From an uncultured Pelagibacteraceae bacterium (GTDB lineage Bacteria > Pseudomonadota > Alphaproteobacteria > Pelagibacterales > Pelagibacteraceae), in the NCBI GenBank assembly GCA_902588255.1, contig CACIOK010000002.1:6258-70257 (forward strand): 64,000 bases of DNA. The letters are read 5' to 3'. Positions 2,160 through 23,510 of this stretch are shown here, piece by piece. The notes under the pieces are model-generated. The model was not told where the DNA came from, did not search any database, and saw only the letters and a program-made list of their open reading frames with translations. Each line of letters starts with the position of its first letter. Within the stretch, counting starts at the first letter, position 1. The position numbers and the translations under genes were made by a program.

Positions 2160-2160
2160 T

Positions 2161-2325: not shown

Positions 2326-2327
2326 TT

Positions 2328-4481
2328 TTAATCTATTCCAAGATGTTTTTTTCTTTTTTCTACCCAAGTACGAATTAAATTGTCAAATATAAGACCTATG
2401 AAAGCAACACAAATACCAAGTACCAACCCTTTGCCCCCACCTGCCTTATCAGATAAAGCTTTTAAAATATATTGTCCTAAATCTTCTGTTCCTATAAATG
2501 CTCCTATAATTACCATAAACAAAGCAAATACGATTGTTTGATTTAAACCAAGCATCATATGGGGAAATGCTAAAGGAAATTCTATTTTGAATAATCTTTG
2601 TAATTTAGTTACACCCGACATTGTGGCTGCATCATGCAAAGCAGCTGGAACACTTTTTAATCCTTCAATGGTATATCTTGTTGCGGGTATAGTAGCATAA
2701 ACAATTACGGCAATTAGTACCGAAGTGTCCGTAACTCCAAACAACATCATTACTGGAATTAAGTATACAAAGGAAGGAAATGTTTGAAAAATATCACAAA
2801 CTCCTAACATAAAATTTGTAGTATATTTGTTTTGTTGACATAAAGTTCCAACAGTAAAACCAATTGTGCAAGATATGATGACACCAAAAGTTGCCATGTA
2901 TGTTGTGACTAATGCTCTATCCCACCATGGACTTAGAGCAATAAACAATGTTAATCCACCTACTGTAAAAGCTGAACGAATTCCACCAATTATGTAGCCC
3001 GCACCAACAACTAAAACTAAAGTCGCAACTGCTGGCATTCTTAGATAAAGTGCTCTCATTGGCTGAAGAACTTCAGTAATCAACCATGTATTAAATGCTT
3101 TTATGTACACAAAGAAAGTATCAAAAATCCAATCAACACCTTTGTTCCAGAAATCTGCAGTTGATATTCCTTTATTATGAGGAACCTCATATAAATAATT
3201 AAAGCCTTCTTTAAAGAAAAAAGATCCTGCAAGAGCAAGTATTGCCCCAATCACCACAGCTCCACCAAAAAATATTGTGTTTTTATAACGCTGAAAAAAT
3301 GTCAAATTACCAAAATAATCAGTTTGTTTATTGGCCCAAGCTAAAGACATTTTATCTAAAAGTATTGCAATCAAACTAATGCATAAGCCTGCTTCTAATG
3401 CTAATCCAATATTTAGTTGATTTAAAGCTAGTAATAAATTCCACCCTAGACCTTTGGCTCCTATAAAAGCTGAAATAACCGCCATAGAAAAACAAACCAT
3501 AATTACTTGGTTCACACCAATCAAAATATCTCTTCTTGCAGTTGGAATTAATACCTCAGTCAAAAGTTGCCAATTACTACATCCGCTCATTTTACCAGCT
3601 TCAATAACTTCTGGAGATACTCCTCTAAGGCCTAACAAAGTTAATAGGATCATAGGAGGAATAGCAACAACCATTGTTATTATAACTGCAGCATGATCAC
3701 CAATACCGAACAGAACCATAGCAGGGACGAGAACAGCATATTGAGGCATAGTCTGCATAACTAAAAGTATTGGATACAATGCTTTCTCAACACGTTTACT
3801 TTTATAAGCCATAACACCTAAGCTTAATCCAAAAATAAAAGAAAGTGGTGCTGCTACCAAGATAAAAGAAAGTGTTTGCATTGATGGTTTCCATTGACCA
3901 AACACTGAAATATAAATCATTACTAAGCCAGCAAATATTGCTAAGCCCTTGCCACTCAATTTGTAAGCCAAGATGGCTGCACCCGCAGCAACAATTGTCC
4001 AAGGTAAGCCTGGTAATTTTGCCCAGGGATATGCACTTACAAAATTCCAACTTGTAAATGCAACAATTGTTTCAACACCACCTAATAAAATTTCTCTTAT
4101 TAATTCAATAAGAAATGTCATGAACGCAGTTACATTTCTTGATATTTGCAATACTAAAGGTCGAGTTTTATATTCTTGTGTAGCTGAATCCCAAAATTCC
4201 ATTGGCATCCATTCATTCAATAGAAAAAATAGGCCATCATTTATCCAAATAGGTAGCCATCCAAGTAAAGGGGGCAATCTCCAGAAATTATCAAAGGCGT
4301 AATATCTTACTTCTTTACCAAAAAGTATATAAGTACTTTGGTTTGGATCTTTAATAAATTCAGCTTGACCTCTTATAAATTTATAGGTTTCAGGAACATC
4401 AATTGCAAAACACAAACCAAAAAATACAATTAACAAAAATAACCATTGAAATAATTTTGGATATTTTTTTAATAATTCCAT
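2328..4481 (-). CDS. tmoV: TMAO/glycine-betaine-family ABC permease with two fused TM modules
   Basis: Two ProW-like repeats (MQTMPQYAVLVP / FQTFPSFVYLIP) with two EAA-type loops (EAGKMSG, DAATMSG); same strand as tmoW and tmoX. Confidence 0.82.
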   Translation of the reverse strand: MELLKKYPKLFQWLFLLIVFFGLCFAIDVPETYKFIRGQAEFIKDPNQSTYILFGKEVRYYAFDNFWRLPPLLGWLPIWINDGLFFLLNEWMPMEFWDSATQEYKTRPLVLQISRNVTAFMTFLIELIREILLGGVETIVAFTSWNFVSAYPWAKLPGLPWTIVAAGAAILAYKLSGKGLAIFAGLVMIYISVFGQWKPSMQTLSFILVAAPLSFIFGLSLGVMAYKSKRVEKALYPILLVMQTMPQYAVLVPAMVLFGIGDHAAVIITMVVAIPPMILLTLLGLRGVSPEVIEAGKMSGCSNWQLLTEVLIPTARRDILIGVNQVIMVCFSMAVISAFIGAKGLGWNLLLALNQLNIGLALEAGLCISLIAILLDKMSLAWANKQTDYFGNLTFFQRYKNTIFFGGAVVIGAILALAGSFFFKEGFNYLYEVPHNKGISTADFWNKGVDWIFDTFFVYIKAFNTWLITEVLQPMRALYLRMPAVATLVLVVGAGYIIGGIRSAFTVGGLTLFIALSPWWDRALVTTYMATFGVIISCTIGFTVGTLCQQNKYTTNFMLGVCDIFQTFPSFVYLIPVMMLFGVTDTSVLIAVIVYATIPATRYTIEGLKSVPAALHDAATMSGVTKLQRLFKIEFPLAFPHMMLGLNQTIVFALFMVIIGAFIGTEDLGQYILKALSDKAGGGKGLVLGICVAFIGLIFDNLIRTWVEKRKKHLGID

Positions 4482-4484
4482 AAT

Positions 4485-5516
4485 TTAACTGTTTTCTTTT
4501 CTTCCTCCAAAAACAGTATGGATTATTTTTGAAGGATGAACAGTTCCAACAATTTTATTATTACTATCTATTACACCTACTGATTTTTCTTGAGATAAAA
4601 TTTTTTCAGCTACATTTTCTATTATCTCATCTTTTGAAACTTTTAGATCACTTAAATTATCTGATTTTGGTGCATCCATTACATCTTCTATTATTAAAAC
4701 TTTTTCCCTTGGCACTTCTTCAGTAAATTTTTTTACATACTCTGTGGCTGGACTTAGTACAATTTTCGCAGGTGTATCTAGCTGTTCGATTATTCCATCT
4801 TTCATGATTGCTATTCGATCAGCAAGTTTCAATGCTTCGTCAAAATCATGGGTAATAAACATAATTGTTTTTTTTAGCTTTTCTTGAAGTCTTAAAAATT
4901 CATCTTGCATTTCTTTTCTAATCAATGGATCTAATGCAGAAAAAGGTTCGTCTAAAAACCAAATATCAGGTTCAACAGCTAATGATCGAGCGATACCTAC
5001 TCTTTGTTGTTGTCCTCCTGAAAGTTCTCTTGGGAAATAATTTTCTCTTCCATCAAGACCAACAAGTTTGACCATGTCCATGGCTTTATTGATACTTTTC
5101 TCAGTCTCTATACCTTTGATTTGGAGTGGAAAAGCAATATTTTCCAAGACTGTTTTATGTGGAAGTAAAGCAAAACTTTGAAAAACCATTCCCATTTTAT
5201 TTCTTCTAAGTTCAATCAACTCTTTATCTTTTAATGAAAGTAAATCTTGGCCTTCTATAAAAATTTTTCCACCCGTCGCATCTGTTAATCTAGAGATACA
5301 TCTTAATAATGTAGATTTTCCGGAACCAGATAACCCCATTACGACCAACATTTCTCCTTTTAAAACTTCAAAAGAAGCATTGTTCACCCCTACAATGCAT
5401 CCGTTTTCCTGGAATGTTTTTGCATCTACGTTTCCATTTGCTTCTTCAAGCATTTTTTTGGCGTTTGCGCCAAATATTTTGTAAACAGATTCACATTTAA
5501 TTACAGCATCAGTCAT
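4485..5516 (-). CDS. tmoW: TMAO/glycine-betaine-family ABC ATPase (ProV-like)
   Basis: Walker A GLSGSGKS, signature LSGGQQQRV, DEPFSALDPLIR, H-loop ITHD; likely start MTDAVIKC at 5516. Confidence 0.85.
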   Translation of the reverse strand: MTDAVIKCESVYKIFGANAKKMLEEANGNVDAKTFQENGCIVGVNNASFEVLKGEMLVVMGLSGSGKSTLLRCISRLTDATGGKIFIEGQDLLSLKDKELIELRRNKMGMVFQSFALLPHKTVLENIAFPLQIKGIETEKSINKAMDMVKLVGLDGRENYFPRELSGGQQQRVGIARSLAVEPDIWFLDEPFSALDPLIRKEMQDEFLRLQEKLKKTIMFITHDFDEALKLADRIAIMKDGIIEQLDTPAKIVLSPATEYVKKFTEEVPREKVLIIEDVMDAPKSDNLSDLKVSKDEIIENVAEKILSQEKSVGVIDSNNKIVGTVHPSKIIHTVFGGRKENS

Positions 5517-5580
5517 TTCATTTAACAAGTTATACGATATTCAGTAAAAATAAAATCTATATAATTGTTGTTTTTCCTCC

Positions 5581-6135
5581 CTAAAAATTTTTAATAAAAT
5601 AAACTCTAGTATCAATACCTGTACTTAAAAAACTTAAAACTTCTCCTGAAACATTTACTGTCTCATTCACTCCAACATTGCTTCCACTTACAGTATAGCC
5701 AGCAAAACATTTATTTTTATTTTTATCCCATTTCACAAATGTATCATCAATTTTATTACCATTGATGGTATACAGCTCATAAGCTTTATAATTTAAAAAA
5801 TGGGCAGCCATAATAGCTCGCTGTGGAATAAGTTTAGTTATTTTACAAACTGCTTCGTATTGTTCTTTAGATAATTTATAATGATCAGTTCCATCATAGA
5901 ATACTACAATGCCAGATGGAAGACTTGATATAACTTCATTTAGTTTTTTTTCGTTTGCAATTCTTTCTTCTTCTAATTTCATTTTTCTAATTAACTCATC
6001 ACCTCCACCCCAATAAATATTTAAAATAGCAAAAGATAAGATTACAAAAATTGTTATTGACACTAGACCAGCAAATTGTCGTGCTGGTTCGGGTAACCCA
6101 ATTAATAACTTATTTAAATATTTATTTTTTAGCAT
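5581..6135 (-). CDS. Hypothetical membrane-anchored protein
   Basis: 184-aa ORF: one N-terminal TM helix, short coiled segment, soluble domain; family not recognised. Confidence 0.6.
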   Translation of the reverse strand: MLKNKYLNKLLIGLPEPARQFAGLVSITIFVILSFAILNIYWGGGDELIRKMKLEEERIANEKKLNEVISSLPSGIVVFYDGTDHYKLSKEQYEAVCKITKLIPQRAIMAAHFLNYKAYELYTINGNKIDDTFVKWDKNKNKCFAGYTVSGSNVGVNETVNVSGEVLSFLSTGIDTRVYFIKNF

Positions 6136-7685: not shown

Positions 7686-10013
7686 ATGTCGTTAACTAGT
7701 AATGCTATTAAAAACCCAGGTTTAAGAACTTTGCCACCTGGAGTTGAAAGATACCATATTCAAGGTGGTGGTATTAATATTCTAGAAATATTTCCAGAGG
7801 ATAAAATAGAAATAATTAATGATGAAGGAAAACAAATTTGCGAAATAATTGTATTTAATGCCAAAGGAAAAGGAGATTTATCAATCCTTAGTTTAAAAGA
7901 AAATTCAAATGGTGATTATTTAAAAAAAGCCATTAATCAAGATAGAAAAATTTTACAATTATTAAAAAAAAAGAATCTCGAATTAAATAAATCAAAATCA
8001 TCAATTGTATTTAGTGAAGACTGTCCAATGGGTGAAAAAATAAATCTAAAGTCAAAAGATGCATGTATCGTAATGTTGGCTTCACCGGGTATGGCAATGG
8101 ATGTTCATAATCAAAACCCACCCTCAAGTTTAACAATTTTTTTGCATAGAGCTAAATTTGAATTAAAAAAAGAACAGTATGTTTTGCCTGAACCACTTTA
8201 CGATCCAGTTTCTGAAAAATTTATTAAAAGAATGACTGCTGAAACTTATGATGTAAAAGAAGGAGATTACATTCAAATCATCGACACAAGTGGTAGACAA
8301 TGTTCAGATTTTTTAGCTTTCGATAAAAAAAAACTTGATAAAGGCATTGAAGATATAATTGACCCTACTGCAACTCGAACATTTATGGGCTCTGCTTATC
8401 CTATGCCAGGTTTATTTTCTAAATTTTTCGATGCTAACCACGATCCAGTAATTGAAGTTGTAAGAGATACAGTTGGAAGGCATGATACTTTTAATTACGC
8501 GTGTACAGCTAAATATTACGAGGATATGGGATATTTTGGACACATAAATTGTTCTACAAATTTTAACAATGTCCTAAAAAATTATGATGTAAAACCAAGA
8601 AAAGGTTGGATAGCAATTAATCTTTTTTTTAATACAGCAATTGACGCTAACAACGTTGCTTCTTTCGATGAGCCTTGGTCCAGACCAGGTGATTATGTGC
8701 TATTTAGAGCATTAAAAGATTTAACATGTGCATCTTCAGCATGTCCTTGTGATGTTGATCCAGCAAATGGATGGAATCCAACAGATATATTTGTTAGAAC
8801 TTACGCTAAAGATAAAAAAATTTCAAAAGGAGTTGCTTTTAGAGTGAATACAGATTCAGAACCAAAACTTACTCAAGAAACTGGCTTTCATGCCAAAACA
8901 TCTAAACTAACTAAAAATTTCATAAACTATAATGGTTATTGGTTAGCAAATAATTACACAAGACACGGCGCAGTCAAAGAATATACCTCATGTAGAGAAA
9001 GTGCGATTGTTACAGATTTATCTCCACTAAGAAAATTTGAAATTTTAGGACCTGATGCTGAAAACTTAATGCAATATACACTTACTCGTAATGTAAAAAA
9101 ACTTTCTGCGGGTCAAGTTGTTTATTCTGCAATGTGCTACGAAAATGGCTGCATGATAGACGATGGGACGTTAATGAAATTTGGACAAGATAATTTTAGA
9201 TGGATCGGTGGGCAAGAATATGGTGGTGAGTGGCTTAAAGAGCAAGCAAAAAAGAAAAATTTTAAAGTTTGGGTAAAATCATCAACTGATCAAATTCACA
9301 ATATTGCAGTTCAGGGTCCAAATAGTAGAAAAATTTTGGAAAAATTTGTATGGACACCTGACACTCAACCATCAATTAAAGATTTAGAATGGTTTAGATT
9401 GACTATTGGAAGAATTGACTCCGTAACCGGAACACCAATTATGGTATCAAGAACCGGTTATACAGGTGAATTAGGATTCGAAATCTGGTGCCACCCGAAA
9501 GATGCGGGTACAGTTTGGGACAAAGTTTTTGAGTCTGGTAAAGAATTTAAAATATCCCCTTTGGGATTAGAGGCTTTAGATATGGTTCGTATAGAAGCTG
9601 GACTAATATTTTATGGTTACGAGTTTGATGATAAAACAGATCCTTTTGAAGCAGGCATAGGGTTTACGGTACCACTTAAAACTAAAGAAGATGATTTCAT
9701 TGGCAAAGAAGAGTTAATAAAAAGAAAAAATAATCCACAAAAAAAACTTGTTGGTCTTGAATTGGTGGGCCATGAACCAGCTGTAACTGGTAATACAGTT
9801 CATATTGGAAGAGGCCAAGTAGGAGTAATTACTAGCGGTATGCTATCCAAGACTTTAAATAAAAATATTGCTCTTTGTAGAATAGATGTAAAACATGCAG
9901 AAATAGGAAACGAAGTTGAGGTAGGGAAAATGGATGGTCATCAAAAAAGAATTCCAGCAAAAATAGTTCCATTTCCTTTTTATGATCCACAAAAAACAAA
10001 AGTGAGAGCTTAA
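7686..10013 (+). CDS. tdm: TMAO demethylase (DUF1989 domain + GcvT-like THF-binding domain)
   Basis: GRQCSDF, HDTFNYACTAKYY..GYFGHINC, CPCDVDPANGWNPTD (DUF1989 metal-binding Cys set) fused to GcvT motifs DLSPLRKFE, SRTGYTGELGFE, RIEAG. Confidence 0.92.
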   Translation: MSLTSNAIKNPGLRTLPPGVERYHIQGGGINILEIFPEDKIEIINDEGKQICEIIVFNAKGKGDLSILSLKENSNGDYLKKAINQDRKILQLLKKKNLELNKSKSSIVFSEDCPMGEKINLKSKDACIVMLASPGMAMDVHNQNPPSSLTIFLHRAKFELKKEQYVLPEPLYDPVSEKFIKRMTAETYDVKEGDYIQIIDTSGRQCSDFLAFDKKKLDKGIEDIIDPTATRTFMGSAYPMPGLFSKFFDANHDPVIEVVRDTVGRHDTFNYACTAKYYEDMGYFGHINCSTNFNNVLKNYDVKPRKGWIAINLFFNTAIDANNVASFDEPWSRPGDYVLFRALKDLTCASSACPCDVDPANGWNPTDIFVRTYAKDKKISKGVAFRVNTDSEPKLTQETGFHAKTSKLTKNFINYNGYWLANNYTRHGAVKEYTSCRESAIVTDLSPLRKFEILGPDAENLMQYTLTRNVKKLSAGQVVYSAMCYENGCMIDDGTLMKFGQDNFRWIGGQEYGGEWLKEQAKKKNFKVWVKSSTDQIHNIAVQGPNSRKILEKFVWTPDTQPSIKDLEWFRLTIGRIDSVTGTPIMVSRTGYTGELGFEIWCHPKDAGTVWDKVFESGKEFKISPLGLEALDMVRIEAGLIFYGYEFDDKTDPFEAGIGFTVPLKTKEDDFIGKEELIKRKNNPQKKLVGLELVGHEPAVTGNTVHIGRGQVGVITSGMLSKTLNKNIALCRIDVKHAEIGNEVEVGKMDGHQKRIPAKIVPFPFYDPQKTKVRA

Positions 10014-10361
10014 ATGAAAAGTACAAAAGCTTTGCTAGAGTTTTGGGAAGAACAGATGAAGCAGTCTCACACTTCAAGTAATTTTTTTTTTAGAAAGTCA
10101 CCTTCTCACTACCATATGATGCTTATAATCATGGCATATTATAAACAAAATATGCCTATAACTGTAGAAGAGTTAAAAACAAAACTTTTCAAAACTTCGA
10201 GACCAAAATCTGCATTAATAATTAACGAAGCTTGTGAAAAAGGTTTTTTTTATTTACAAAAAACAGCAGAGGATCAAAGAAAAAAAAATATCAAGCCAAC
10301 TGAAAGTTTTGTAGAAGAATTCGAAAATTATCTTAAAAAGTTAAGAGAGATATCTCTTTAA
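10014..10361 (+). CDS. Small putative winged-helix (MarR-like) protein
   Basis: 115 aa abutting the tdm stop; ITVEELK..SRPKSALIINEACEKGF..EDQRKKNI resembles a MarR HTH plus DxR wing. Confidence 0.55.
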   Translation: MKSTKALLEFWEEQMKQSHTSSNFFFRKSPSHYHMMLIIMAYYKQNMPITVEELKTKLFKTSRPKSALIINEACEKGFFYLQKTAEDQRKKNIKPTESFVEEFENYLKKLREISL

Positions 10362-13048
10362 CCGGTATTCTTCATCGCCGCAGATATACCTGCTATCGAT
10401 GTCATCATTGCATCATTAAGATATTTCTTATCATTAGATTTGAATTTTTTCTTTAATAATTTATTCATAACTACGGCTTGCAATATATTTAAAACTTCGG
10501 AATAAATGTCTCTAACTAGGACTGTTGTTCTAAATTTTTTTCTTTGATTTATTATTTCCTGTGGAGTTATGTATCTATTTAATTTTTTAATCATGCTAAA
10601 CTCTGATCTAAGTTTCTCTCCTACTTCTATTAATTTTTTATCAGCAAGAGCGTTTTCATAAACTTCTGATATCTCTGGGTCAACTTTTGAAATAACCATA
10701 TCTAAAATATCCATTGTAGAATTGAAAAATGGCCAATTTTTTTCCATATCAGTGAGAGTAGTTTTATGTTTTTTTACTGAAGAATATTTTAAGGCATCGC
10801 CAGTTCCCAACCAAGCTGGTAACATTAATCTTATTTGCGTCCATGCAAATACCCAAGGTATTGCTCTTAAGCTTTGGATGTTATCTACATTTTTTCTTTT
10901 AGAGGGTCGTGATCCTATTGATAATTTTCCAAGAGCTAAGTGAGGTGTAACAGTTTTAAAATATCTTATAAAATCTGAGTTCTCGTTTATATTTTTTCTA
11001 TAAGCTAAAGTAGAAATTTTTGTCATTTTTTCTATTAATTTTCTCCAACTATCTTTAGGTTGTGGTGGTGGGTTTAGAGTAGCCTCCATTATAGATCCTA
11101 TGTAACTACATAAATTATATTTTGCTAGAGGTTCGTAACCATATTTTTGTTGTATCATTTCTCCCTGGTCAGTAATTCTAATACGACCATATACCGAATT
11201 TGGAGGTTGAGATCTCATCGTTGCTTGAATTGGTCCACCACCCCTTCCAGCTGAACCTCCTCTGCCATGAAAAAAAGTAAGATTAATTTTATATTTTTTT
11301 GCGATAGTTAAAACTTCTTCTTGAAGCTTATATTGATGCCAGCTAGCAGATAATTTTCCAGCATCTTTGCTAGAGTCTGAATAACCAATCATAATTTCTT
11401 GATTGTTTTTGATTAATTTTCTGTACCACTTTAATGAAAAAAGTTTTTCCATAATAGATTTTGCATTTTTTAAATCCTGCAAAGTTTCAAAAAGTGGAAC
11501 TACTCGTAATTTATTTTTAATATTTGCCTGCATTTGCATTAAATAAACTGCTAAGACATCTGAAGCTGCTGAAGTCATTGATATTACATAAGCACCCAAA
11601 CATTCTGATGGCTCATCAGCTAAAATCTTAAAAGTTGACCAAACTTCTTTATTTTCTTTATTTTTAAAATTAAAATTTTTGAAAATTTTTTTATTTTTCT
11701 TCATTTCATTTACTAAATATTTAATTTTTTTATTCTCATCCCAATTTAAATAATTAGATTTATTTTTTTTCTTTACATATTCTGCTAATAATTGTGAATG
11801 CCTTGATGACTCTTGTCTTATATCCAATTTTGCTAAATTTATACCAAAGCATTTAGCTCGTCTCATTAAATCGAGCAACTCACCGCTTGCAATATTTTCA
11901 CTTTGGTTTTTCTCTAATGACTCTCTTACAACTCTTAAAGGTTTTAAAATTTCCTCTTTAGAAGATAAAAGTTTTTTTTGATCTAGTGGTTTTTTTGCTA
12001 CTAAATGTCTTTCTATTAATCTATGCGTCTTTCTCATTTCATCTCTTAATGGTCTTAAATAAACTCTATAAGGTTCAAAAGTTTTTCCGGTAGTTTTAAG
12101 AATTTTTTTTGAACATTTTTCCATTGAAAGTCCTCTAATTAATTTTGTTAATTCTTTCTCGTAAAGTTTTGCTGCTTCCCACCTTGATAAAAGTATTACT
12201 TCTTTAGTAATGGCTGCTGTTACATTTGGGTTGCCGTCTCTATCTCCTCCCATCCAAGATCCAAATTCAATTGGATTAAAATTTTTAGGTAAACCTCTTC
12301 CCATATGTTTTACGAAAATAGCATTTAATCTCCTATAAACTTTTGGAATCGTTTCCCAAAGACTATCTTCAATTACTGCTAATCCCCATCTTGCTTCCTC
12401 AGCTGGAGTAGGTTTAAATCTTTTTAAATCGTCAGTATTCCAAATAATTGTAAACTCATCATAAAGTTTTTTATCCAAAATTTTTAAACGCGATTGTTTA
12501 TCCTTCAGAAGATCTCTTTGATCCATTATCTCAGTTATTTTATGGTATTTTTGTATTAAAGTTCTTCTTTTAACTTCAGTTGGATGAGCTGTAAGAACTA
12601 TCCCGATATGAAGATTTTTTGCAATATTATAAATTTTTTGAGGTTTAATTTTTTTGTTTTTAAAAAAATTTTCGAAAATTTCTTCAATGAAAATATTCTT
12701 ATGTTTGTCTTTCAGGCCAGAATTTTCAAATTCATCTAATTTTCTAGAGGCATCTATAGATTCACTAAGATTAATAAAATTCATAAAATGAGTAAATGCT
12801 CTTGCTAATTTAAATATTTTGATTGGTTTAAGTCTTTGAATTTCTGAAGTAATTTTATTAAATCTATTTTTATTATTTTTATTTTTAATGTTTGCTTTTG
12901 ATAGCAATCTTATTCTCTCTACTAAATTAAAAAAACTTTCTCCCTCCTGTTTTTTTATTACTCTACCTAAAATATTTCCCAAGTATCGAACGTCATCTCT
13001 CAAAGATTTTGTGGGTATTCTTTCGTAATAGAGGTCTCTTTTTAGCAT
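10358..13048 (-). CDS. ppc: Phosphoenolpyruvate carboxylase
   Basis: Catalytic motifs VLTAHPTE, GSWMGGDRDGNP, IMIGYSDSSKDAG, FHGRGGSAGRGG, LRAIPWVF and C-terminal MKNTG. Confidence 0.97.
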   Translation of the reverse strand: MLKRDLYYERIPTKSLRDDVRYLGNILGRVIKKQEGESFFNLVERIRLLSKANIKNKNNKNRFNKITSEIQRLKPIKIFKLARAFTHFMNFINLSESIDASRKLDEFENSGLKDKHKNIFIEEIFENFFKNKKIKPQKIYNIAKNLHIGIVLTAHPTEVKRRTLIQKYHKITEIMDQRDLLKDKQSRLKILDKKLYDEFTIIWNTDDLKRFKPTPAEEARWGLAVIEDSLWETIPKVYRRLNAIFVKHMGRGLPKNFNPIEFGSWMGGDRDGNPNVTAAITKEVILLSRWEAAKLYEKELTKLIRGLSMEKCSKKILKTTGKTFEPYRVYLRPLRDEMRKTHRLIERHLVAKKPLDQKKLLSSKEEILKPLRVVRESLEKNQSENIASGELLDLMRRAKCFGINLAKLDIRQESSRHSQLLAEYVKKKNKSNYLNWDENKKIKYLVNEMKKNKKIFKNFNFKNKENKEVWSTFKILADEPSECLGAYVISMTSAASDVLAVYLMQMQANIKNKLRVVPLFETLQDLKNAKSIMEKLFSLKWYRKLIKNNQEIMIGYSDSSKDAGKLSASWHQYKLQEEVLTIAKKYKINLTFFHGRGGSAGRGGGPIQATMRSQPPNSVYGRIRITDQGEMIQQKYGYEPLAKYNLCSYIGSIMEATLNPPPQPKDSWRKLIEKMTKISTLAYRKNINENSDFIRYFKTVTPHLALGKLSIGSRPSKRKNVDNIQSLRAIPWVFAWTQIRLMLPAWLGTGDALKYSSVKKHKTTLTDMEKNWPFFNSTMDILDMVISKVDPEISEVYENALADKKLIEVGEKLRSEFSMIKKLNRYITPQEIINQRKKFRTTVLVRDIYSEVLNILQAVVMNKLLKKKFKSNDKKYLNDAMMTSIAGISAAMKNTG

Positions 13049-13120
13049 TTGGTATAAACTATTAATCTAAGATAATTATACTATACAATAATCTTTATGG
13101 TTAACTATTTGCTTTATATT

Positions 13121-14011
13121 TTAATTTTTACTATTTAAAGCTGATTTTACAGTTTCTCCCATTACTGAAGGGTTTTGTGAAATAGTAACTCCACATTCTT
13201 TTAAGAGTTCAACTTTTTCTACTGCGCTTTCTCCGTAGGCTGACACGATCGCTCCAGCATGTCCCATTACTCTACCCTTTGGGGCTGTTAATCCCGCTAT
13301 ATAAGCTATAACTGGTTTTTTCATATTTTCTTTAGCAAACTTTCCTGCTGCTACTTCTTGTGGTCCACCTATTTCTCCGATCATTAAAACTGCTTCCGTT
13401 TCATTGTCTTCTTCAAATTTTTCTAAAATATCTTTAAAAGAACTTCCATTAATAGGATCTCCTCCTATTCCTACACTTGTAGAGACTCCAATGTTTAAGT
13501 TTTTTAATTGTTGAGCAGCTTCATAACCAAGCGTACCTGATCTACCTATAATTCCTACTTTGCCTTCTTTGTATATATGGCCTGGCATTATACCTAACAT
13601 TGCTTTTCCAGGACTAATTATTCCAGCACAATTTGGACCAACAAGAGTCATTTTTTCTGTTCTAGAATATCTCCTCATATAACGTTTAATTTTAATCATG
13701 TCGTGTGATGGGATTCCATCAACAATTGCTACACACGTCTTAATCCCGGCATCAGCTGCTTCCATTGCGGAGTCTGCTGCAAAAGCAGGTGGAACAAATA
13801 AAATTGAAGCTGTTGCACCCGTACTTTTTACTGCTTCTTTAACAGTATTAAACACTGGTAAGTTTAAATGTTTCAATCCACCTTTTCCAGGTGTAACTCC
13901 CCCTACTACATTCGATCCATATTTTATCATTTCTTCGGCATGAAAAGATCCCATTTTTCCAGTAAAACCTTGAATAATAATTTTTGTTTTTTTATCTATT
14001 AAGACTGACAT
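13121..14011 (-). CDS. mtkB: Malate--CoA ligase (malate thiokinase) alpha subunit, SucD-like
   Basis: SucD fold (phospho-His MGHAGA) with MtkB-type KRYMRRY...GPNCAGIISPGKAMLGIMPGHIY and SGTLGYEA; operon with mcl. Confidence 0.85.
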   Translation of the reverse strand: MSVLIDKKTKIIIQGFTGKMGSFHAEEMIKYGSNVVGGVTPGKGGLKHLNLPVFNTVKEAVKSTGATASILFVPPAFAADSAMEAADAGIKTCVAIVDGIPSHDMIKIKRYMRRYSRTEKMTLVGPNCAGIISPGKAMLGIMPGHIYKEGKVGIIGRSGTLGYEAAQQLKNLNIGVSTSVGIGGDPINGSSFKDILEKFEEDNETEAVLMIGEIGGPQEVAAGKFAKENMKKPVIAYIAGLTAPKGRVMGHAGAIVSAYGESAVEKVELLKECGVTISQNPSVMGETVKSALNSKN

Positions 14012-14013
14012 TT

Positions 14014-15177
14014 TTATTTTCCTAAAGCTTTAACTGCTTTGTTAGCAGCATCCTCTAAAGTGTTGGCTTCTATATAGTTAATTTTACTTTCTTTTAAAAT
14101 TTTATTTCCTTTATCAACGTTTGTTCCAGCTAATCTAATCACCAGAGGAACTTTGATGTCTATTTTTTGTAATGCTTGAACTATTCCCTCTGCAACCCAA
14201 TCACATCTATTAATTCCTGCAAAAATATTAACTAGTATAACCTTAACTTTTTTATCCATTGATATTAATTTAAATGCTTTGACTATTTTTTCGGGGGTTG
14301 CCCCACCACCTACGTCTAAAAAGTTAGCTGGTTCTCCTCCAGCCAATTTAATCATGTCCATAGATGCCATAGCTAAGCCTGCACCATTAATTATATTTCC
14401 AATATTTCCGTCTAAACTTACATAGTTAAGACCCCTGTCTGATGCATAAACTTCATTGCTATTTTCTTGTGTTTTATCTCTTAACTCTGAAACTTGATTT
14501 CTTCTAAATAAGGCATTGTTATCAAAGCTCATTTTACAATCTAATGCAAGTATTTGATCTTGATTTGAAATAACTAATGGATTTACTTCTACCATGGTAG
14601 CATCTAATTCGCTGAATGCTCTGTAACATCCAATAATTGTTTCTGCCGCTCTTGCTATTAGTTTTGGCTCAATTTTTAATCCAAAGGCGATTTCTCTTGC
14701 TTGAAATTTTTGCATTCCAACAGCAACTTCAATTTTTGATCTTATAATAGTCTCTGGTTTTTTCTTAGAAATTTCTTCAACGCTCATTCCTCCCTCTGTT
14801 GATGCAACTACCATTATACTTTCTGAACTTCGATCAAATACTAGTCCTAGATATAACTCTTTTTTAATTTCTGTTGCTTCTTCTATGTAAACTCTATTTG
14901 TAATTTTTCCTTCTGGACCTGTTTGATTTGTGACTAATTTTTTACCAAGAAGTTTATCTGCTGCTTGAGCTACTTCTAGAGCGCTATTACAAACAATTAT
15001 TCCACCTGCTTTTCCTCTGGCTCCAGAATGAATTTGTGCTTTAACAACCCATTTAGATCCACCAAGTTCTCTAGCTTTATTTTCTGCATTCTCTGGACTG
15101 TAGACAATTCCACCTCTTGGAATTGTAACTCCAAATCCTGAAAGTATTTTTTTTGCTTGATACTCGTGAATATCCAT
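14014..15177 (-). CDS. mtkA: Malate--CoA ligase (malate thiokinase) beta subunit, SucC-like
   Basis: MDIHEYQAK, KAQIHSGARGKAGG, NGAGLAM and VNIFAGINRCDW (MtkA type; SucC normally reads NIFGGIVRCD/IMRCD). Confidence 0.87.
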   Translation of the reverse strand: MDIHEYQAKKILSGFGVTIPRGGIVYSPENAENKARELGGSKWVVKAQIHSGARGKAGGIIVCNSALEVAQAADKLLGKKLVTNQTGPEGKITNRVYIEEATEIKKELYLGLVFDRSSESIMVVASTEGGMSVEEISKKKPETIIRSKIEVAVGMQKFQAREIAFGLKIEPKLIARAAETIIGCYRAFSELDATMVEVNPLVISNQDQILALDCKMSFDNNALFRRNQVSELRDKTQENSNEVYASDRGLNYVSLDGNIGNIINGAGLAMASMDMIKLAGGEPANFLDVGGGATPEKIVKAFKLISMDKKVKVILVNIFAGINRCDWVAEGIVQALQKIDIKVPLVIRLAGTNVDKGNKILKESKINYIEANTLEDAANKAVKALGK

Positions 15178-15178
15178 T

Positions 15179-16117
15179 TTATTTATTTTGAATAAGTTTA
15201 TCTATATTTACAATATTTTCTGCCATACGTGCAGATGCTGCATCAATCATCCTTCCATCTAGTTGTGCAGCTCCTTTTCCTTCTTTTGCAGCTTTATCTA
15301 GTTCTTCAAGAATTCTTTTAGCTTTATTTACTTCAGATTCTGGTGGAGAAAAAACTTTATTTGCTAAATCAATTTGAGATGGATGTATTGCCCATTTGCC
15401 TTCAATCCCAATTGCAGCTGCTCTTTTTGCTGATGCTATATATGCATTGCTATCATTAAAATCTCCAAATGGTCCGTCGATCGCTCTTAAGCCGTAAGCT
15501 CTACATGTCATAACCAGTTTAGACAAACCGTGGTGCCATTGATCGCCGGGATAATCAGGATTTAATCCTCCTATCACTACTGTTCTTGCTCTTAAACTTG
15601 CAGCATAGTCTGCCACGCCAAAATGCAGAGCTTCTAATCTACTACTAGATTTTGCAATATCTTTTATATTCGACATTCCTAAAGCTGTTTCAATTAAACA
15701 TTCAATTCCTATTTTATTTTTTATTTTTTTATTAGCTTCAATTTGTGTTAACAAACAATCAACCATGTAAACATCACTGGCTGTACCTGCTTTTGGTACC
15801 AATATTGTATCTACTTTGTCGCCTGCCTCCTCTACAATTTCTACCAAATCTCGATACATATAATGAGTATCCAAACTATTAATTCTTACAGAAATAGTTT
15901 TTCCTTTCTCTTTCCAATTAATTTCTTTGAGTGCCTTAATAACATTTTGACGTGCAGGAATTTTATCGTTTGGGGAAACAGCATCTTCAAGATCTAAAAA
16001 AATATAGTCAGAATTTGAATTTAATGCTTTTTCAAACATTTTAGGTGATGACCCTGGCACTGCTAATTCACTTCTCTGCAACCTAGACTTTGCTGGTTTA
16101 TAAAATTTATGGCTCAT
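15179..16117 (-). CDS. mcl: L-malyl-CoA/beta-methylmalyl-CoA lyase
   Basis: RLQRSELAVPGS, FLDLEDAV, DTHYMYRD, LHFGVADYAAS, DGPFGDF, EGKWAIHPSQI, LDGRMIDAAS: Mcl clade of the CitE superfamily. Confidence 0.9.
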   Translation of the reverse strand: MSHKFYKPAKSRLQRSELAVPGSSPKMFEKALNSNSDYIFLDLEDAVSPNDKIPARQNVIKALKEINWKEKGKTISVRINSLDTHYMYRDLVEIVEEAGDKVDTILVPKAGTASDVYMVDCLLTQIEANKKIKNKIGIECLIETALGMSNIKDIAKSSSRLEALHFGVADYAASLRARTVVIGGLNPDYPGDQWHHGLSKLVMTCRAYGLRAIDGPFGDFNDSNAYIASAKRAAAIGIEGKWAIHPSQIDLANKVFSPPESEVNKAKRILEELDKAAKEGKGAAQLDGRMIDAASARMAENIVNIDKLIQNK

Positions 16118-16129
16118 AAAATAAGTATA
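16118..16129 (-). promoter_or_regulatory. Putative -10 box for a leaderless mcl-mtkA-mtkB transcript
   Basis: Minus strand TATACT (16129-16124), 6 nt, then the ATG of mcl; no SD upstream. Confidence 0.45.
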
Positions 16130-16255
16130 AATTTTTATATTAAGCTAAAAATACAAAAATTAAGGTATGATTTTTATATATACTTTTTAGATATTTAAAA
16201 AGAACTTTAATAAGTTTTTTTCTTTTGTTAGTGATTCAGGTAACAAATAGAATTT

Positions 16256-17584
16256 ATGTCAAATTTGCCAACTAAAGCTAAAGTAGTTATTATTGGTGGT
16301 GGAATTCACGGTCTAAGCACAGCTTGGAAATTATCTGAAACATATAAAAATCCTGGTGAAATTGTAGTCTTAGAAAAAAAAGATACTGCTGCTGGAGCAA
16401 GTGGAATAGCTTGTGGAGTTGTAAGAAACAATTATTTTCAACCCGCAATGAGAGAATTAATGGCTCATTCAGTAAGTGTTTGGGAAAGTGATCCAAAAGC
16501 TTTTAAATATAATGCCGTAGGATATATGCAAATTTCACCTGAAGTTATGCATAAAGATGTAGCTAGTATTTATGAACAACAAAAAGCTATAGGTTATGAT
16601 TCAGTTTTTATTGAAGGTGAAAAAGACTGCTCAAAGTACATGAAAGGAATTTTTGATGATTGGCAAGCAAAAGGGATTACATCTGTACTTCATGAAAAAA
16701 AAGGTGGATACGCTTTTAATAAAGACTCAATTAAAGCTTTAGAAAGTAAAGCAAACTCAAACGGGGTAAATGTACACAAAGGTGTTAAGGTAACAGGTTT
16801 CAAAAGAGGAAGTAATAGTAATGCAGTTACTGGAGTGGTAACTGATAAAGGTACTATAGAATGTGACCAAGTTGTTGTCGGTGCAGGTCCGTGGGTTAGA
16901 GATTTTTGGAATATGTTAGAACTTCCAAAAACTGCAGAAATTAAAGGACAAGATGGAAAAACACATGAAGTTGATATGTGGAAATATTGGTTTTTACAAG
17001 AAGGCGTTTTGGGAGTAGAAGCTGACTACTTAAGAACTAATGATGGTAAGCAACCGCCAGTGATTCATGTAGATACTGATGCTCCTTTATATTCAGATAA
17101 AGATAAGAAATTAATTACTGATAAATTGTGGGGTATATACTACAAACCTGATATTGAGGGTTTGGGTGTACAAGGTGGTACCTCACCCTATATAGTTCAA
17201 AAACATTTTGATAAAGTAAATGTTGATCCTTACGGTTTAGAGTCGCCGGAGTATCAAACAACAAACGAGTTTGCTGACATGTGGTCATCTGCTTTAGCTC
17301 ATTGTCAAAAAAGATTTGAAGGTAAATCTAATTTATACAGAAAAGGTCCGTCGGGTGGACTTGGATGTTTAACGCCAGATTCATTTCCAATTTTTGATAG
17401 ATTTTTTGAAAATGTATACATGATAGCAGACGCAAATCATGGTTACAAAATGATTGGTGTTGGACACTTGGTTGCGCAAGAAATTTTAGGTCAAGAAAGT
17501 AACTTATTAAAACCGTTTAGATTCAATCGATACGCGAAAGGGGAACTTCACCCCACTTCGAACAGTCCATTTCCTTGGAGTTAG
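16256..17584 (+). CDS. FAD-dependent amine oxidoreductase (DAO / sarcosine-oxidase-beta / MgdA-like)
   Basis: VIIGGGIHG, GASGIACGVVRNNY, VVVGAGPW, TPDSFPI, HGYKMIG; first gene of the N-methylglutamate run. Confidence 0.8.
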   Translation: MSNLPTKAKVVIIGGGIHGLSTAWKLSETYKNPGEIVVLEKKDTAAGASGIACGVVRNNYFQPAMRELMAHSVSVWESDPKAFKYNAVGYMQISPEVMHKDVASIYEQQKAIGYDSVFIEGEKDCSKYMKGIFDDWQAKGITSVLHEKKGGYAFNKDSIKALESKANSNGVNVHKGVKVTGFKRGSNSNAVTGVVTDKGTIECDQVVVGAGPWVRDFWNMLELPKTAEIKGQDGKTHEVDMWKYWFLQEGVLGVEADYLRTNDGKQPPVIHVDTDAPLYSDKDKKLITDKLWGIYYKPDIEGLGVQGGTSPYIVQKHFDKVNVDPYGLESPEYQTTNEFADMWSSALAHCQKRFEGKSNLYRKGPSGGLGCLTPDSFPIFDRFFENVYMIADANHGYKMIGVGHLVAQEILGQESNLLKPFRFNRYAKGELHPTSNSPFPWS

Positions 17585-17652
17585 TTTATCTAAGTAGACA
17601 GAAGTTTTTTTTTCAGTTACCTTTTTGGTCTTAAAATAGTTAAGAGGGAAAA

Positions 17653-19122
17653 ATGACAGATCTAGAAAAACATGTAAACCAACCAGGAAGAGATAAGCTA
17701 GTAAAAAAAGTTAGAGAAAAAATTAACGAATTAGGAATTACATACATTTATTATCAATTTATATCTGTAACTGGACGTGTTGTTGGTAAAGGAATTCCCG
17801 CAGACCATTGGGAAAGAACGGCGGAAAAAGGTTTTCAATTAGTTTATGGATCTACAGCAAACTTATTTGTAGACAGACACAAAAATTATATTGGTTACGG
17901 TCCTGAAGCTATGGAACTTGTTGGTATACCTGACCCGGAAACTTTCTGTCAATTACCGTGGGACAAAAGAATTGGAAGAGTTTTTGTAACTTGTTTTAGA
18001 AATAGAGAAGAAAGACAAAATCCAGGTGGTCATTTAACTTCTGATTGCAGAGGTAATTTGAAAATTTTTATGGATGAATTCCAGAAGAAACATGGTTTAG
18101 AATTAAGAGTTGGAACGGAACCTGAAATGATGTGGTTGACAAAAAATGCTGATGGAACTCCTACTGGAGAAGGTTTTTCTAAACCATATTGTTATCACAT
18201 TGATCAATTTGAGTCATTGAGACCTGTGTTTATGAAGGTAATTGAATACGCTTCTGCGATGGGTTTAGATATGATCCAGGGTGACCATGAAGATGCTCCA
18301 GGACAATTAGAATTAAACTGGACTTACGATAACGTTTTAAGAAACGCTGATAGACTTTCTACTTACAGACAAATTTGTGCTCAAGTAGCAAGAGAACATA
18401 ATTTAATAGCATGCTTTATGACTAAACCGTTTATGGGTGTGTCTGCAAGTGGTTGTCACACAAATATGTCCTTATGGAAAGGTGGAAAAGTTGTAACAAA
18501 CAAATTAGGTAATAAAAAATTACCCGGAGTTGAGGAAGTTTTTGGTTATGTTCAGGGAGGTACAAATACTTTTATGCCTGATACTAAAGATATGCAAATG
18601 CCAGGTAAAGTTGGTTTGCAGTCCATTGCTGGAATAATGGAACACTTGCCTGCTTTAACAGCTTTAGGATCTTCAACTGTCAATTCTTACAGAAGACTTT
18701 GGGATCAGGGTTTTTGGGCTCCAGTTTATGCTGATTGGGGATATCAAAACAGAACTTGTGGTTTAAGAGTTTCTGCTCCAGGAAGATTTGAGTATAGATC
18801 TGTAGACTCTATGCACAACCCATATCTGTTGGGCGCAGCATTATTAAAAGCTTGTGACCACGGTATTTCAAAAAATCTAAAACCATCAAAACCTGAGTCT
18901 AGAAGTATGTATGAGGCTAAAAAGGCTGGTAAAGATGTTAAGAAACTTCCATTAAGTCTAGGTGAAGCTTTAGATAGATTAGCAGAGGATGAGGTTATTA
19001 AATCTGCAATGCCAGACGAAATGTATAAAGTTTTCCATTGGTACAAAAATGATGAATGGGAAAAATTCTTAGGTGCTACCACGCAATGGGATCTTGATAC
19101 ATATTTAGATTGTTTACCATAA
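17653..19122 (+). CDS. Glutamine-synthetase-like gamma-glutamyl:amine ligase (not the canonical GmaS)
   Basis: GTEPE, HEDAPGQLE, FMTKP, NSYRRL, QNRT, FEYRSVD, NPYL present; ammonium-site motifs altered (VYGST for FDGSS; GFWAP for GYEAP). GAGGG RBS. Confidence 0.8.
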   Translation: MTDLEKHVNQPGRDKLVKKVREKINELGITYIYYQFISVTGRVVGKGIPADHWERTAEKGFQLVYGSTANLFVDRHKNYIGYGPEAMELVGIPDPETFCQLPWDKRIGRVFVTCFRNREERQNPGGHLTSDCRGNLKIFMDEFQKKHGLELRVGTEPEMMWLTKNADGTPTGEGFSKPYCYHIDQFESLRPVFMKVIEYASAMGLDMIQGDHEDAPGQLELNWTYDNVLRNADRLSTYRQICAQVAREHNLIACFMTKPFMGVSASGCHTNMSLWKGGKVVTNKLGNKKLPGVEEVFGYVQGGTNTFMPDTKDMQMPGKVGLQSIAGIMEHLPALTALGSSTVNSYRRLWDQGFWAPVYADWGYQNRTCGLRVSAPGRFEYRSVDSMHNPYLLGAALLKACDHGISKNLKPSKPESRSMYEAKKAGKDVKKLPLSLGEALDRLAEDEVIKSAMPDEMYKVFHWYKNDEWEKFLGATTQWDLDTYLDCLP

Positions 19123-22745: not shown

Positions 22746-23510
22746 TTGAATATAATCACTTCATTTCCAAAATCCGGGAATACCTGGATGCGTTTTATAA
22801 TTTATGAACTACTTTATAATAACAAAAATGAAGAAAATAATAATTCCTTAAATATTAAAAATAAGGTTCCAGATTTACATCTATTACTAAAAATTAAAAA
22901 TAATCAATTTGTATTCGATACAGAAAAAATTGATGATTATGCTAATATTTATTTAAAAACACACTTTGGTTATAACCAAATAAAAAATTTTCCTTTAGAA
23001 AAAGTAATTATTATAATTAGAAATCCTTTAGATGTTTTTGTTTCTTTGATCAATTATTATGATATTAGCAAAGATAAGATCGATGATTTAGTTGATTTTT
23101 TTTGCGTAAACTATACTTTGCCTCGTTTTAAAAATTTTCCAAACTGGTATGAACATTTAGATGGTTGGGTAAATTCTAATTTGAAATTTGGTCTATTCAA
23201 ATATTCTGATCTTCTATATGATTTTGAAAATCAAATAATAAAATTAGGTAATTTTTTAAATATTAAAATTGATAATACAAAAATTCAAATAGTAAAAAAA
23301 AATACATCCTTTGAAAAATTAAAAAAAATTGAAATTTTTGAAAGAAACAAAAAATTAAATAGCTTCTTTAATAATGATGCTATGGGATTAGTAAAAAATT
23401 CTTTTATGAATGTTGGAAAAAATCATTATTATTCATCAGTATTAAATAAAGATCAGATTGATAAACTTGAAAAATCATTTGGTAAAGCAATTGAAAAATA
23501 TGGATTATAA
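22746..23510 (+). CDS. PAPS-dependent sulfotransferase domain protein
   Basis: 5'-PSB loop TSFPKSGNTW, LKTH, 3'-PB motif IIRNPLDVFVS, KYSDL, TSFEKLK; TTG start; very AT-rich. Confidence 0.8.
   Translation: MNIITSFPKSGNTWMRFIIYELLYNNKNEENNNSLNIKNKVPDLHLLLKIKNNQFVFDTEKIDDYANIYLKTHFGYNQIKNFPLEKVIIIIRNPLDVFVSLINYYDISKDKIDDLVDFFCVNYTLPRFKNFPNWYEHLDGWVNSNLKFGLFKYSDLLYDFENQIIKLGNFLNIKIDNTKIQIVKKNTSFEKLKKIEIFERNKKLNSFFNNDAMGLVKNSFMNVGKNHYYSSVLNKDQIDKLEKSFGKAIEKYGL

Follow-up and report, generated by a model that had tools for sequence, protein, structure and literature searches.

The window analyzed here, a 64-kb stretch (64,000 nucleotides) of contig CACIOK010000002.1 from an uncultured Pelagibacteraceae bacterium, carries on its minus strand a compact cassette of four genes predicted to activate malate and split it into glyoxylate and acetyl-coenzyme A (acetyl-CoA). 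All positions are coordinates of this window, and gene identities come from open reading frame (ORF) calls together with NCBIfam and Pfam scans of the window proteins. In transcriptional order, the genes encode a putative L-malyl-CoA/beta-methylmalyl-CoA lyase (mcl, P0003, 15179 to 16117, 312 amino acids [aa]), the beta subunit (mtkA, P0001, 14014 to 15177, 387 aa) and alpha subunit (mtkB, P0002, 13121 to 14011, 296 aa) of a candidate malate--CoA ligase (malate thiokinase), and a phosphoenolpyruvate (PEP) carboxylase (ppc, P0004, 10358 to 13048, 896 aa). Each gene has an ATG start and no internal stop, the intergenic gaps are 1, 2, and 72 nt, and E values of 1e-127 to 1e-282 exclude chance matches. 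A preliminary description of this DNA had reported four intact co-oriented genes with these gaps at 10358 to 16117, lying between tdm (trimethylamine N-oxide [TMAO] demethylase) and the N-methylglutamate genes of a SAR11-type host. The ORF calls agree with it, the NCBIfam and Pfam scans confirm both flanks, and the host assignment is supported by 95% amino acid identity to Pelagibacteraceae single-cell genomes and a GC content of 30%.

The ligase is predicted to be of the malate thiokinase (Mtk) type and not of the succinyl-CoA synthetase (SucCD) type. MtkA scored 633 bits against the model for malate--CoA ligase subunit beta (NF010647), above the curated cut-off of 604, versus 520.6 bits against the SucC model. 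In a library of representatives at 50% identity, P0125 (61% identity, 520 bits) was the sole close relative of MtkA, and the next best match reached 404 bits. When 30 of the 150 listed representatives (the full-length ones at the top of the list) were scored on NCBIfam, only P0125 reached the Mtk cut-off; the other 29 were SucC by best match and scored 418 to 525 bits on the Mtk model. A quick maximum-likelihood tree (IQ-TREE, LG+C20) was built from 49 rows, namely, 19 of the 77 MtkA ORFs (the window and 18 loci spanning all of the genomic contexts described below), P0125, and the 29 SucC-type representatives, leaving out four ORFs shorter than 330 aa. This tree separated Mtk from SucC with a support of 99 in the SH-like approximate likelihood ratio test (SH-aLRT), with the window ligase in the Mtk clade, and joined all Pelagibacterales rows with two alphaproteobacterial metagenome-assembled genomes (MAGs; L060 and L061) at 100.

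Residue patterns follow the same division. Three alignment columns (M275, A320, and W327) share no residue between the 20 Mtk and the 29 SucC rows; position 320 is glycine in all 29 SucC rows, none of which has W327, and the motif NIFAGINRCDW is present in all 20 Mtk rows. The motif and the three positions form a signature derived in this analysis rather than a curated definition. We take the Gly-Gly-Ile-Val loop to contact or line the succinate site in solved succinyl-CoA synthetase structures, and the Ala/Asn version of this loop would be a reasonable adaptation to malate or another hydroxylated substrate. MtkB combines PF02629 (CoA_binding) and PF00549 (Ligase_CoA) domains and scored 424.7 bits on a SucD-type model, and no Mtk-alpha-specific model was matched in its NCBIfam scan. 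The motif KRYMRRY occurs in 67 of the 75 MtkB ORFs (loci and window), and GHAGA, the phosphohistidine loop of the alpha subunit, occurs in 72 of them, including the window MtkB, whose gene starts 2 nt after mtkA. SucCD of Escherichia coli (1jkj/2scu) has the same fold and domain order, shares the GHAGA loop, and is about 45 to 50% identical to MtkAB; the beta subunits differ in having AGIN..W and M275 in MtkA versus GGI(V/M)..(V/L/I) in SucC, and they fall in separate clades. Both motifs on which the preliminary description had based its Mtk-type call are thus found in the window proteins, and the call itself is upheld by the NF010647 score, the tree split, and the discriminating residues. No sucCD genes were found among the annotated genes or NCBIfam matches of the window.

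The lyase is closest to the solved malyl-CoA lyases and is a putative L-malyl-CoA-cleaving enzyme. Mcl matches PF03328 (HpcH_HpaI, 133 bits) and, at its C terminus, PF15617 (C-C_Bond_Lyase, 46 bits). Its best PDB match is 5ugr (“Malyl-CoA lyase/beta-methylmalyl-CoA lyase,” 375 bits over residues 3 to 304), followed by 4l9y (“Malyl-CoA lyase,” 281 bits) and two “HpcH/HpaI aldolase” chains at 170 (4l7z) and 160 bits. CitE-like chains scored no more than 110 bits, so the PDB scores favor malyl-CoA lyase over CitE. The NCBIfam scan of Mcl matched no bacterial Mcl model, and the scores for RipC (182 versus a cut-off of 375), CitE (175 versus 443), and haloarchaeal Mcl (143 versus 500) were all below threshold. 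It aligns over its full length with 5ugr and 4l9y, which we take to come from Methylobacterium extorquens and Rhodobacter sphaeroides, respectively, and shares with them long conserved blocks along the barrel and in the C-terminal segment. At 312 aa, the SAR11 protein falls short of these two (333 and 339 aa), and relative to 5ugr about 14 residues are missing around its positions 186 to 193.

The cassette is not confined to the one strain of which the preliminary description spoke. A genome scan with the window MtkA gave at least 600 stretches, including 584 confirmed relatives, and the loci considered here are the best 80. Sixty-seven have an MtkA at least 83% identical to that of the window and are referred to as SAR11-like; with two exceptions, they are titled Pelagibacteraceae, Pelagibacter, Pelagibacterales, or “uncultured Alphaproteobacteria” single-cell or metagenome genomes. 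A Dokdonia MAG (L036; MtkA 90% identical, in a tdm island) and a Gammaproteobacteria MAG (L052; 86%) probably represent mis-binned SAR11 contigs. The other 13 loci comprise 9 with an intact, more distant MtkA and 4 high-GC stretches without a clean ORF in the ORF caller. The closest match of the window MtkA is 95% identical at the protein level, and the closest mtkA DNA match is 83% identical, so the genome of the window is of SAR11 type without being among the species representatives itself. Among 8,000 scored protein database matches, the best 120, drawn from Tara, JGI, ENA, and NCBI, were all at least 94% identical to MtkA. Some carry the JGI name “malate-CoA ligase subunit beta,” and one NCBI entry reads [quoted passage not shown]; annotation pipelines therefore already name the gene.

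Gene neighborhoods were compared by clustering 1,524 ORFs from the loci and the window and by tblastn with the window proteins. In 61 of the 67 SAR11-like loci, mtkA is immediately preceded by mcl, and two others (L070 and L072) are cut by a contig end. Gaps of −1 to 8 nt account for 61 of 67 mcl-mtkA junctions and 58 of 73 mtkA-mtkB junctions (among the six commonest gap classes for each junction), whereas ppc adjoins mtkB in only seven SAR11-like loci. The conserved core is therefore the trio mcl-mtkA-mtkB, with ppc as a variable partner, and it occurs in at least three genomic contexts. In 14 of the 67 loci, the cassette lies, as in the window, between tdm with a 115-aa ORF and a set of oxidase, glutamine synthetase (GS)-like, and mgs genes (L072 was assigned here through the oxidase homologue only). 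In 27 loci, it directly follows hisBHAFE and is followed by a HIT-family gene, with a 4-nt overlap of mcl and hisE at 12 of 24 junctions. In another 19, its neighbors are an SRAP peptidase gene on one side and a histidine-phosphatase gene on the other. Three loci have it after TauD-like and DUF3604 genes and without mcl, and the remaining four are in other contexts or are too short for classification. The link to methylamine genes is therefore not general, because the island position is seen in only 14 of 67. The four-gene arrangement described earlier for the methylamine region holds for the window but not for the group as a whole. In the loci that carry mtkAB after TauD-like genes (L052, L055, and L056; mtkA at about 10001), the preceding genes encode a glutathione S-transferase, a DsbA-like protein, a DUF3604 protein, and a TauD-family dioxygenase. 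The mtkAB-only rows (L052, L055, L056, and L065; 83 to 86% identical) branch first among the Pelagibacterales in the MtkA trees.

A tree built from 64 mtkA DNA sequences (leaving out L039, L040, L070, and L072, plus L062 and L066, which are too short) placed all cassettes of the SRAP context in one clade (99). Judged by its starred branches, the methylamine-island and his-operon contexts must each have undergone at least two changes. Within the main Pelagibacteraceae group, several island loci (L013, the window, L003/L004, and L005/L006) split off early, on unstarred branches with supports of 94 and 91. This order hints, without proving it, that the cassette first resided in the methylamine island within the Pelagibacteraceae. 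In strain HTCC1062, the gcvT-like gene SAR11_1303 adjoins the monomeric sarcosine oxidase gene SAR11_1304 and an opuA-type transporter, according to the accessible text of Sun 2011. We take SAR11_1303 to be tdm, and the block is absent at that site in HTCC1062 because SAR11_1303 and SAR11_1304 are adjacent.

The window Ppc scored 939 bits on NF000584 (cut-off 815) over residues 16 to 896. The SAR11-like loci with ppc next to mtkB are L003, L004, L013, L032, L070, L072, and L062, the last having it on the opposite strand. Two Ppc alleles that are only about 51 to 52% identical occupy the same site after mtkB, one in L003 (2731 to 5448), L004 (12043 to 14760), and L013 (8809 to 11514) and the other in the window, L032, and L070; the MtkA proteins of these genomes are 91 to 94% identical to that of the window. 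The divergent allele overlaps mtkB by 17 nt, and L062 has a third Ppc type (66%). This pattern suggests allele replacement by recombination. In a single-cell genome (L072, “Alpha proteobacterium SCGC AAA288-N07,” 1685 to 4406), the ppc after mtkB is broken into two ORFs, an N-terminal one of 185 aa and one of 688 aa, perhaps because of a frameshift or of an error in the single-cell assembly, and a gene for a TrpB-like pyridoxal phosphate (PLP) enzyme follows.

Carboxylases also accompany the trio outside SAR11. Four gammaproteobacterial MAGs (L063, L074, L075, and L080) have a trio-adjacent Ppc that is 27 to 28% identical to the SAR11 type. In two non-SAR11 alphaproteobacterial MAGs, a pyruvate carboxylase gene directly follows mtkB (L060, 12141 to 16333; L068, 3465 to 6911), and in L060 a carbonic anhydrase gene comes after it. 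The oxaloacetate-forming carboxylases beside the trio are thus not orthologous, and their independent recruitment would be expected if malate is what the trio consumes.

In the window, the genes on one side of the cassette are tmm, a betaine-type ABC transporter, tdm (7686 to 10013, plus strand; NF053776, 1,143.9 bits, cut-off 1,100), and the 115-aa ORF (10014 to 10361, plus strand). This ORF lies directly 3′ of tdm, is convergent with ppc with a 4-nt overlap of the ends, and has no Pfam or NCBIfam match; homologues with 67 to 93% identity were found by tblastn after tdm in 11 loci. On the other side, an AT-rich divergent intergenic region of 138 nt (16118 to 16255), presumably the promoter region of the cassette, separates mcl from a plus-strand gene for a FAD-dependent oxidase of the DAO family (16256 to 17584; sarcosine/glycine-oxidase-like; PF01266, 117.8 bits), whose soxB/ThiO-type NCBIfam matches are weak and all below cut-off. 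This spacing is 131 to 145 nt in six of the seven spacings listed for the 10 loci with the junction. Next come a 489-aa GS-like protein (17653 to 19122), whose match to GS models falls into two stretches and stays below cut-off, and the adjoining mgsABC-like genes. The second GS-like gene of the island encodes a 441-aa type III GS (26206 to 27531; 632 bits versus a cut-off of 470), and 5 nt past it begins a plus-strand gene for a PLP enzyme (27537 to 28664) that matches diaminopropionate ammonia-lyase (NF006058, 404 bits versus a cut-off of 276). Either of the two GS-like proteins may be the gamma-glutamylmethylamide synthetase. An enzyme deaminating serine or diaminopropionate in a one-carbon (C1) island could matter for a serine-to-pyruvate step. 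The methylamine island also holds a sulfotransferase-domain gene (22746 to 23510), and a distant homologue (28 to 29% identity) lies a few genes past the cassette in some his-operon-context loci (L001, L002, and L064, at about 13273 to 14106). The GC content of the cassette block is 0.29 to 0.36 versus 0.30 for the whole window, so its composition looks native, and recent transfer from a high-GC methylotroph was ruled out by these values.

Few regulatory signals were detected. The 72-nt spacer between mtkB and ppc (13049 to 13120, minus strand) contains a promoter-like hexamer pair, TTAACC-18-TATAAT (13104 to 13075), which is a consensus match only and weak evidence, as promoter-like sites were rarer across the region than in shuffled sequences (16 versus 27.2 expected). 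The terminator scan found none between the four cassette genes. Rfam gave no match at gathering score across the whole window and no family at the gathering threshold or at an E value of 5 or less in the divergent region at 16118 to 16255; a permissive search of 9900 to 17700 returned only a sub-threshold xanthine aptamer inside the oxidase gene, and seven other loci yielded tRNAs only.

A clue to the probable fate of glyoxylate comes from a Pelagibacter single-cell genome (L013), in which a 392-aa class V aminotransferase gene (4429 to 5607, minus strand) lies between the FAD oxidase gene and mcl and is divergent from mcl, so that aminotransferase, mcl, mtkA, mtkB, and ppc stand together within the methylamine island. 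The protein is 43 to 48% identical to aminotransferases in gammaproteobacterial and Methylococcaceae clusters. Its best NCBIfam match is the glyoxylate aminotransferase BhcA (447 bits, cut-off 650), and the cluster proteins likewise have BhcA as their best match, below its cut-off. The best 120 of 8,000 protein matches to it are at least 94% identical; one is named for Candidatus Pelagibacter, and many are named alanine- or serine-glyoxylate transaminase by JGI. Such a gene stands beside the trio in this 1 of the 67 SAR11-like loci, and tblastn found no homologue in the window.

The remaining serine-cycle steps are not encoded in the window. Annotation and tblastn of the window revealed no sga, hprA, gck, glyA, eno, mdh, or aceA, bearing out the earlier remark that sga, hpr, gck, and glyA lie outside it; a homologue of the hydroxypyruvate/glyoxylate reductase of methylotroph-type clusters was likewise absent by tblastn, and glycerate kinase was not among the annotated window genes. 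Gammaproteobacterial clusters include that reductase, and none is trio-adjacent in the SAR11-like loci. A Pelagibacterales MAG (L062) has an NAD-dependent formate dehydrogenase gene (7726 to 8925; NF005750, 658 bits versus a cut-off of 329) directly upstream of mcl and a convergent ppc downstream. In the available portion of the Getz 2023 pangenome, ghrA (glyoxylate/hydroxypyruvate reductase) is reported within SAR11 for two LD12 genomes only, which makes a canonical serine cycle doubtful in this group, and one pangenome study mentions, in its accessible text, a flexible SAR11 island with hydroxypyruvate-reducing enzymes. Other parts of the route are described as common: ppc and the glyoxylate shunt are usual in marine SAR11 (Eiler 2016; Henson 2018; Getz 2023), and ppdK is typical of SAR11 (Getz 2023), insofar as the obtainable sections of these papers cover the point. 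SAR11 is further characterized, in the sections accessible to us, as lacking canonical serine/glycine synthesis and requiring glycine or a precursor (Becker 2019, PMC6775983), and subclade Ia is predicted to oxidize rather than assimilate C1 units (Sun 2011).

Compared with known systems, the SAR11 cassette has the same mcl-mtkA-mtkB order as methylotroph serine-cycle clusters (gammaproteobacterial L063, L074 to L077, and L080; Methylococcaceae L079), whose MtkA and Mcl are 60 to 66% and 61 to 72% identical to those of the window and in which ppc is often adjacent. It differs in lacking hydroxypyruvate reductase, in having another Ppc lineage (27 to 28% identity), and in that the trio usually sits in unrelated operons. 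Methylorubrum extorquens reportedly has a serine-cycle cluster of mcl, mtkA, mtkB, and ppc with sga and hpr. Engineered E. coli strains with a “reverse glyoxylate shunt” or “modified serine cycle” are said to use Ppc, malate dehydrogenase (Mdh), Mtk, and Mcl to convert a C3 compound plus CO2 (or a C4 compound) to glyoxylate and acetyl-CoA, and the modified serine cycle reportedly avoids hydroxypyruvate by means of a serine deaminase. Those designs are synthetic, whereas the SAR11 parts are natural and occur in a streamlined oligotroph, where they may work together. In Rhodobacter, Mcl1 and Mcl2 form an “apparent malate synthase,” in which malyl-CoA lyase is paired with a thioesterase in an irreversible reaction without ATP. 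The SAR11 system would likewise pair the lyase with a second enzyme interconverting malyl-CoA and malate, but this partner is a predicted ATP-dependent ligase.

The cassette corresponds to the malate-splitting branch of the serine cycle. Ppc would carboxylate PEP to oxaloacetate, a malate dehydrogenase encoded elsewhere would reduce oxaloacetate to malate, MtkAB would convert malate with ATP to malyl-CoA, and Mcl would cleave malyl-CoA to glyoxylate and acetyl-CoA. A class V aminotransferase of a kind common in Pelagibacter would then most likely transaminate glyoxylate to glycine, which would serve both as a required amino acid and as the acceptor for methylene-tetrahydrofolate (methylene-THF) from Tdm and the N-methylglutamate pathway. 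With modest confidence, we regard this forward conversion of a C3 compound plus bicarbonate to glyoxylate and acetyl-CoA, with glyoxylate supplying glycine, as the most likely role of the cassette. Gene identities, operon-like packing, wide distribution in the Pelagibacterales, and recurrent carboxylase linkage are observed; from them we infer the direction of flux, the fate of glyoxylate, and any relief of the glycine requirement. The forward direction is favored because carboxylases lie beside the trio in separate lineages and because the aminotransferase of L013 is of the glyoxylate type.

Several points weigh against this interpretation. Forty-six of the 67 SAR11-like loci (27 after the his genes and 19 in the SRAP context) have the trio in housekeeping surroundings that lack a neighboring C1 or glyoxylate gene, and four loci (L052, L055, L056, and L065) have mtkAB without mcl within flanks of up to 10 kb. 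In six methylamine-island loci (L005, L006, L026, L036, L042, and L048), mtkB is followed by the 115-aa ORF and not by ppc. Rfam searches of the window and seven loci found no glycine riboswitch or other Rfam element near the cassette. In terms of standard free energies, malyl-CoA condensation is the favorable direction, so reverse flow would be thermodynamically easy. Finally, isocitrate lyase already provides marine SAR11 with glyoxylate, according to the available text of Eiler 2016 and Getz 2023, and a second source is not obviously sufficient because cultured strains still need glycine.

The same forward route, supplemented by a route from serine to PEP, would be needed for a complete serine cycle with net C1 assimilation, in which SAR11 carriers would be true methylotrophs on TMAO or methylamines. 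A canonical version would employ GlyA, Sga, HprA, Gck, Eno, Ppc, Mdh, MtkAB, and Mcl, with isocitrate lyase regenerating glyoxylate, and a hydroxypyruvate-free version would employ GlyA, a serine deaminase, PpdK, Ppc, Mdh, MtkAB, Mcl, and a glyoxylate aminotransferase. The siting of the block, with tdm on one side and the N-methylglutamate genes on the other both in the window and in 14 of 67 loci, speaks for such a cycle, as do the first-branching place of the island loci within the main Pelagibacteraceae group of the mtkA DNA tree (unstarred supports of 94 and 91), the aminotransferase-mcl-mtkA-mtkB-ppc arrangement of the earliest-branching L013, and the gammaproteobacterial relatives that combine mcl-mtkAB with hydroxypyruvate/glyoxylate reductase, ppc, and a class V aminotransferase. 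The PLP ammonia-lyase gene at 27537 to 28664 belongs to the same island, and ppdK and the glyoxylate shunt are typical of SAR11 in the accessible part of Getz 2023. We nevertheless consider net C1 assimilation possible but unlikely: sga, hprA, gck, glyA, eno, mdh, and aceA are not within the window, 46 of 67 cassette copies are not near C1 genes, ghrA is confined to the two LD12 genomes in the pangenome text available (Getz 2023), and field and culture 14C data point to little C1 assimilation in the obtainable part of Sun 2011. It is rather unlikely, in our estimation, that many SAR11 lineages run a natural hydroxypyruvate-free serine cycle and are partial C1/CO2 assimilators and glycine prototrophs rather than mere “methylovores.” In that cycle, methylene-THF from TMAO or methylamine would combine with glycine to give serine, which would pass through pyruvate and PEP to oxaloacetate, with fixation of bicarbonate, and on to malate; MtkAB and Mcl would regenerate glyoxylate as the glycine precursor, and the released acetyl-CoA would enter biomass through the glyoxylate shunt.

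Since Mcl and MtkAB both catalyze reversible reactions and condensation as a whole is strongly exergonic, the trio might instead work as an ATP-conserving malate synthase, with Mcl joining acetyl-CoA and glyoxylate (from glycolate, glycine, or isocitrate) and MtkAB yielding malate and ATP, saving the thioester energy that malate synthase wastes. Such thrift would suit an oligotroph, and the FAD oxidase divergent from mcl belongs to the sarcosine/glycine-oxidase family. The recurring linkage to Ppc, or to pyruvate carboxylase with carbonic anhydrase, fits malate supply rather than malate production, however, and the oxidase-tdm adjacency is older than the cassette, as in HTCC1062 (Sun 2011, accessible text). 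The route would also be redundant, since malate synthase G is reported for other SAR11 clades in the available text of Henson 2018; we find this direction doubtful. Very improbable, to our judgment, is a beta-methylmalyl-CoA or citramalyl-CoA lyase (e.g., in propionyl-CoA/glyoxylate metabolism connected with dimethylsulfoniopropionate or acrylate) with a ligase activating another dicarboxylate. The best structural relative of Mcl is indeed named as a bifunctional malyl-CoA/beta-methylmalyl-CoA lyase, and L052, L055, and L056 carry mtkAB without mcl beside TauD-like and DUF3604 genes, but the annotated cassette neighbors include no mesaconyl-CoA hydratase or transferase, 3-hydroxypropionate, or ethylmalonyl-pathway gene, and the Mtk signature is present in all 20 Mtk rows. 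An ordinary succinyl-CoA synthetase beside a CitE-like lyase, with no special pathway, would agree with MtkA and MtkB also exceeding the SucC and SucD model cut-offs and with the lack of a separate sucCD in the window. This explanation is largely refuted and scarcely credible, as MtkA passes the Mtk cut-off of 604 bits and none of the 29 SucC-type representatives does (418 to 525 bits), the split has an SH-aLRT of 99, library scores drop from 520 to 404 bits, and Mcl scores 375 bits on a malyl-CoA lyase versus at most 110 on CitE chains.

As serine-cycle biology, the enzymes and the way they cluster are textbook material; what appears to be new is their presence, conservation, and mobility in the Pelagibacterales. 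We found no paper in the open literature describing mtk or mcl in SAR11, in a search that did not extend to subscription journals and supplementary tables. A 2026 preprint, in its accessible text, describes SAR11 as oxidizing C1 substrates primarily for energy and contrasts it with a serine-cycle organism and “true” methylotrophs. For gene surveys, in which mcl serves as a marker of the 3-hydroxypropionate bicycle (according to the available part of a preprint), abundant SAR11 mcl could confound marker counts if mcl is used alone.

SAR11 is the standard example of a streamlined heterotroph. In the current view of SAR11, as given in the obtainable sections of Sun 2011 and Becker 2019 (PMC6775983), methyl groups are oxidized for energy only and glycine or its precursors must come from outside. 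A conserved, widespread malate-to-glyoxylate cassette is a concrete genetic reason to expect that some SAR11 lineages differ. If a hydroxypyruvate-free cycle does operate, the ocean's most abundant heterotrophs would possess a naturally evolved equivalent of the modified serine cycle engineered in E. coli. Should glycine dependence or C1 assimilation prove to vary with the cassette, a term specific to the lineage would have to enter models of cross-feeding between SAR11 and phytoplankton, of what becomes of methylated amines, and of anaplerotic CO2 fixation in surface seawater.

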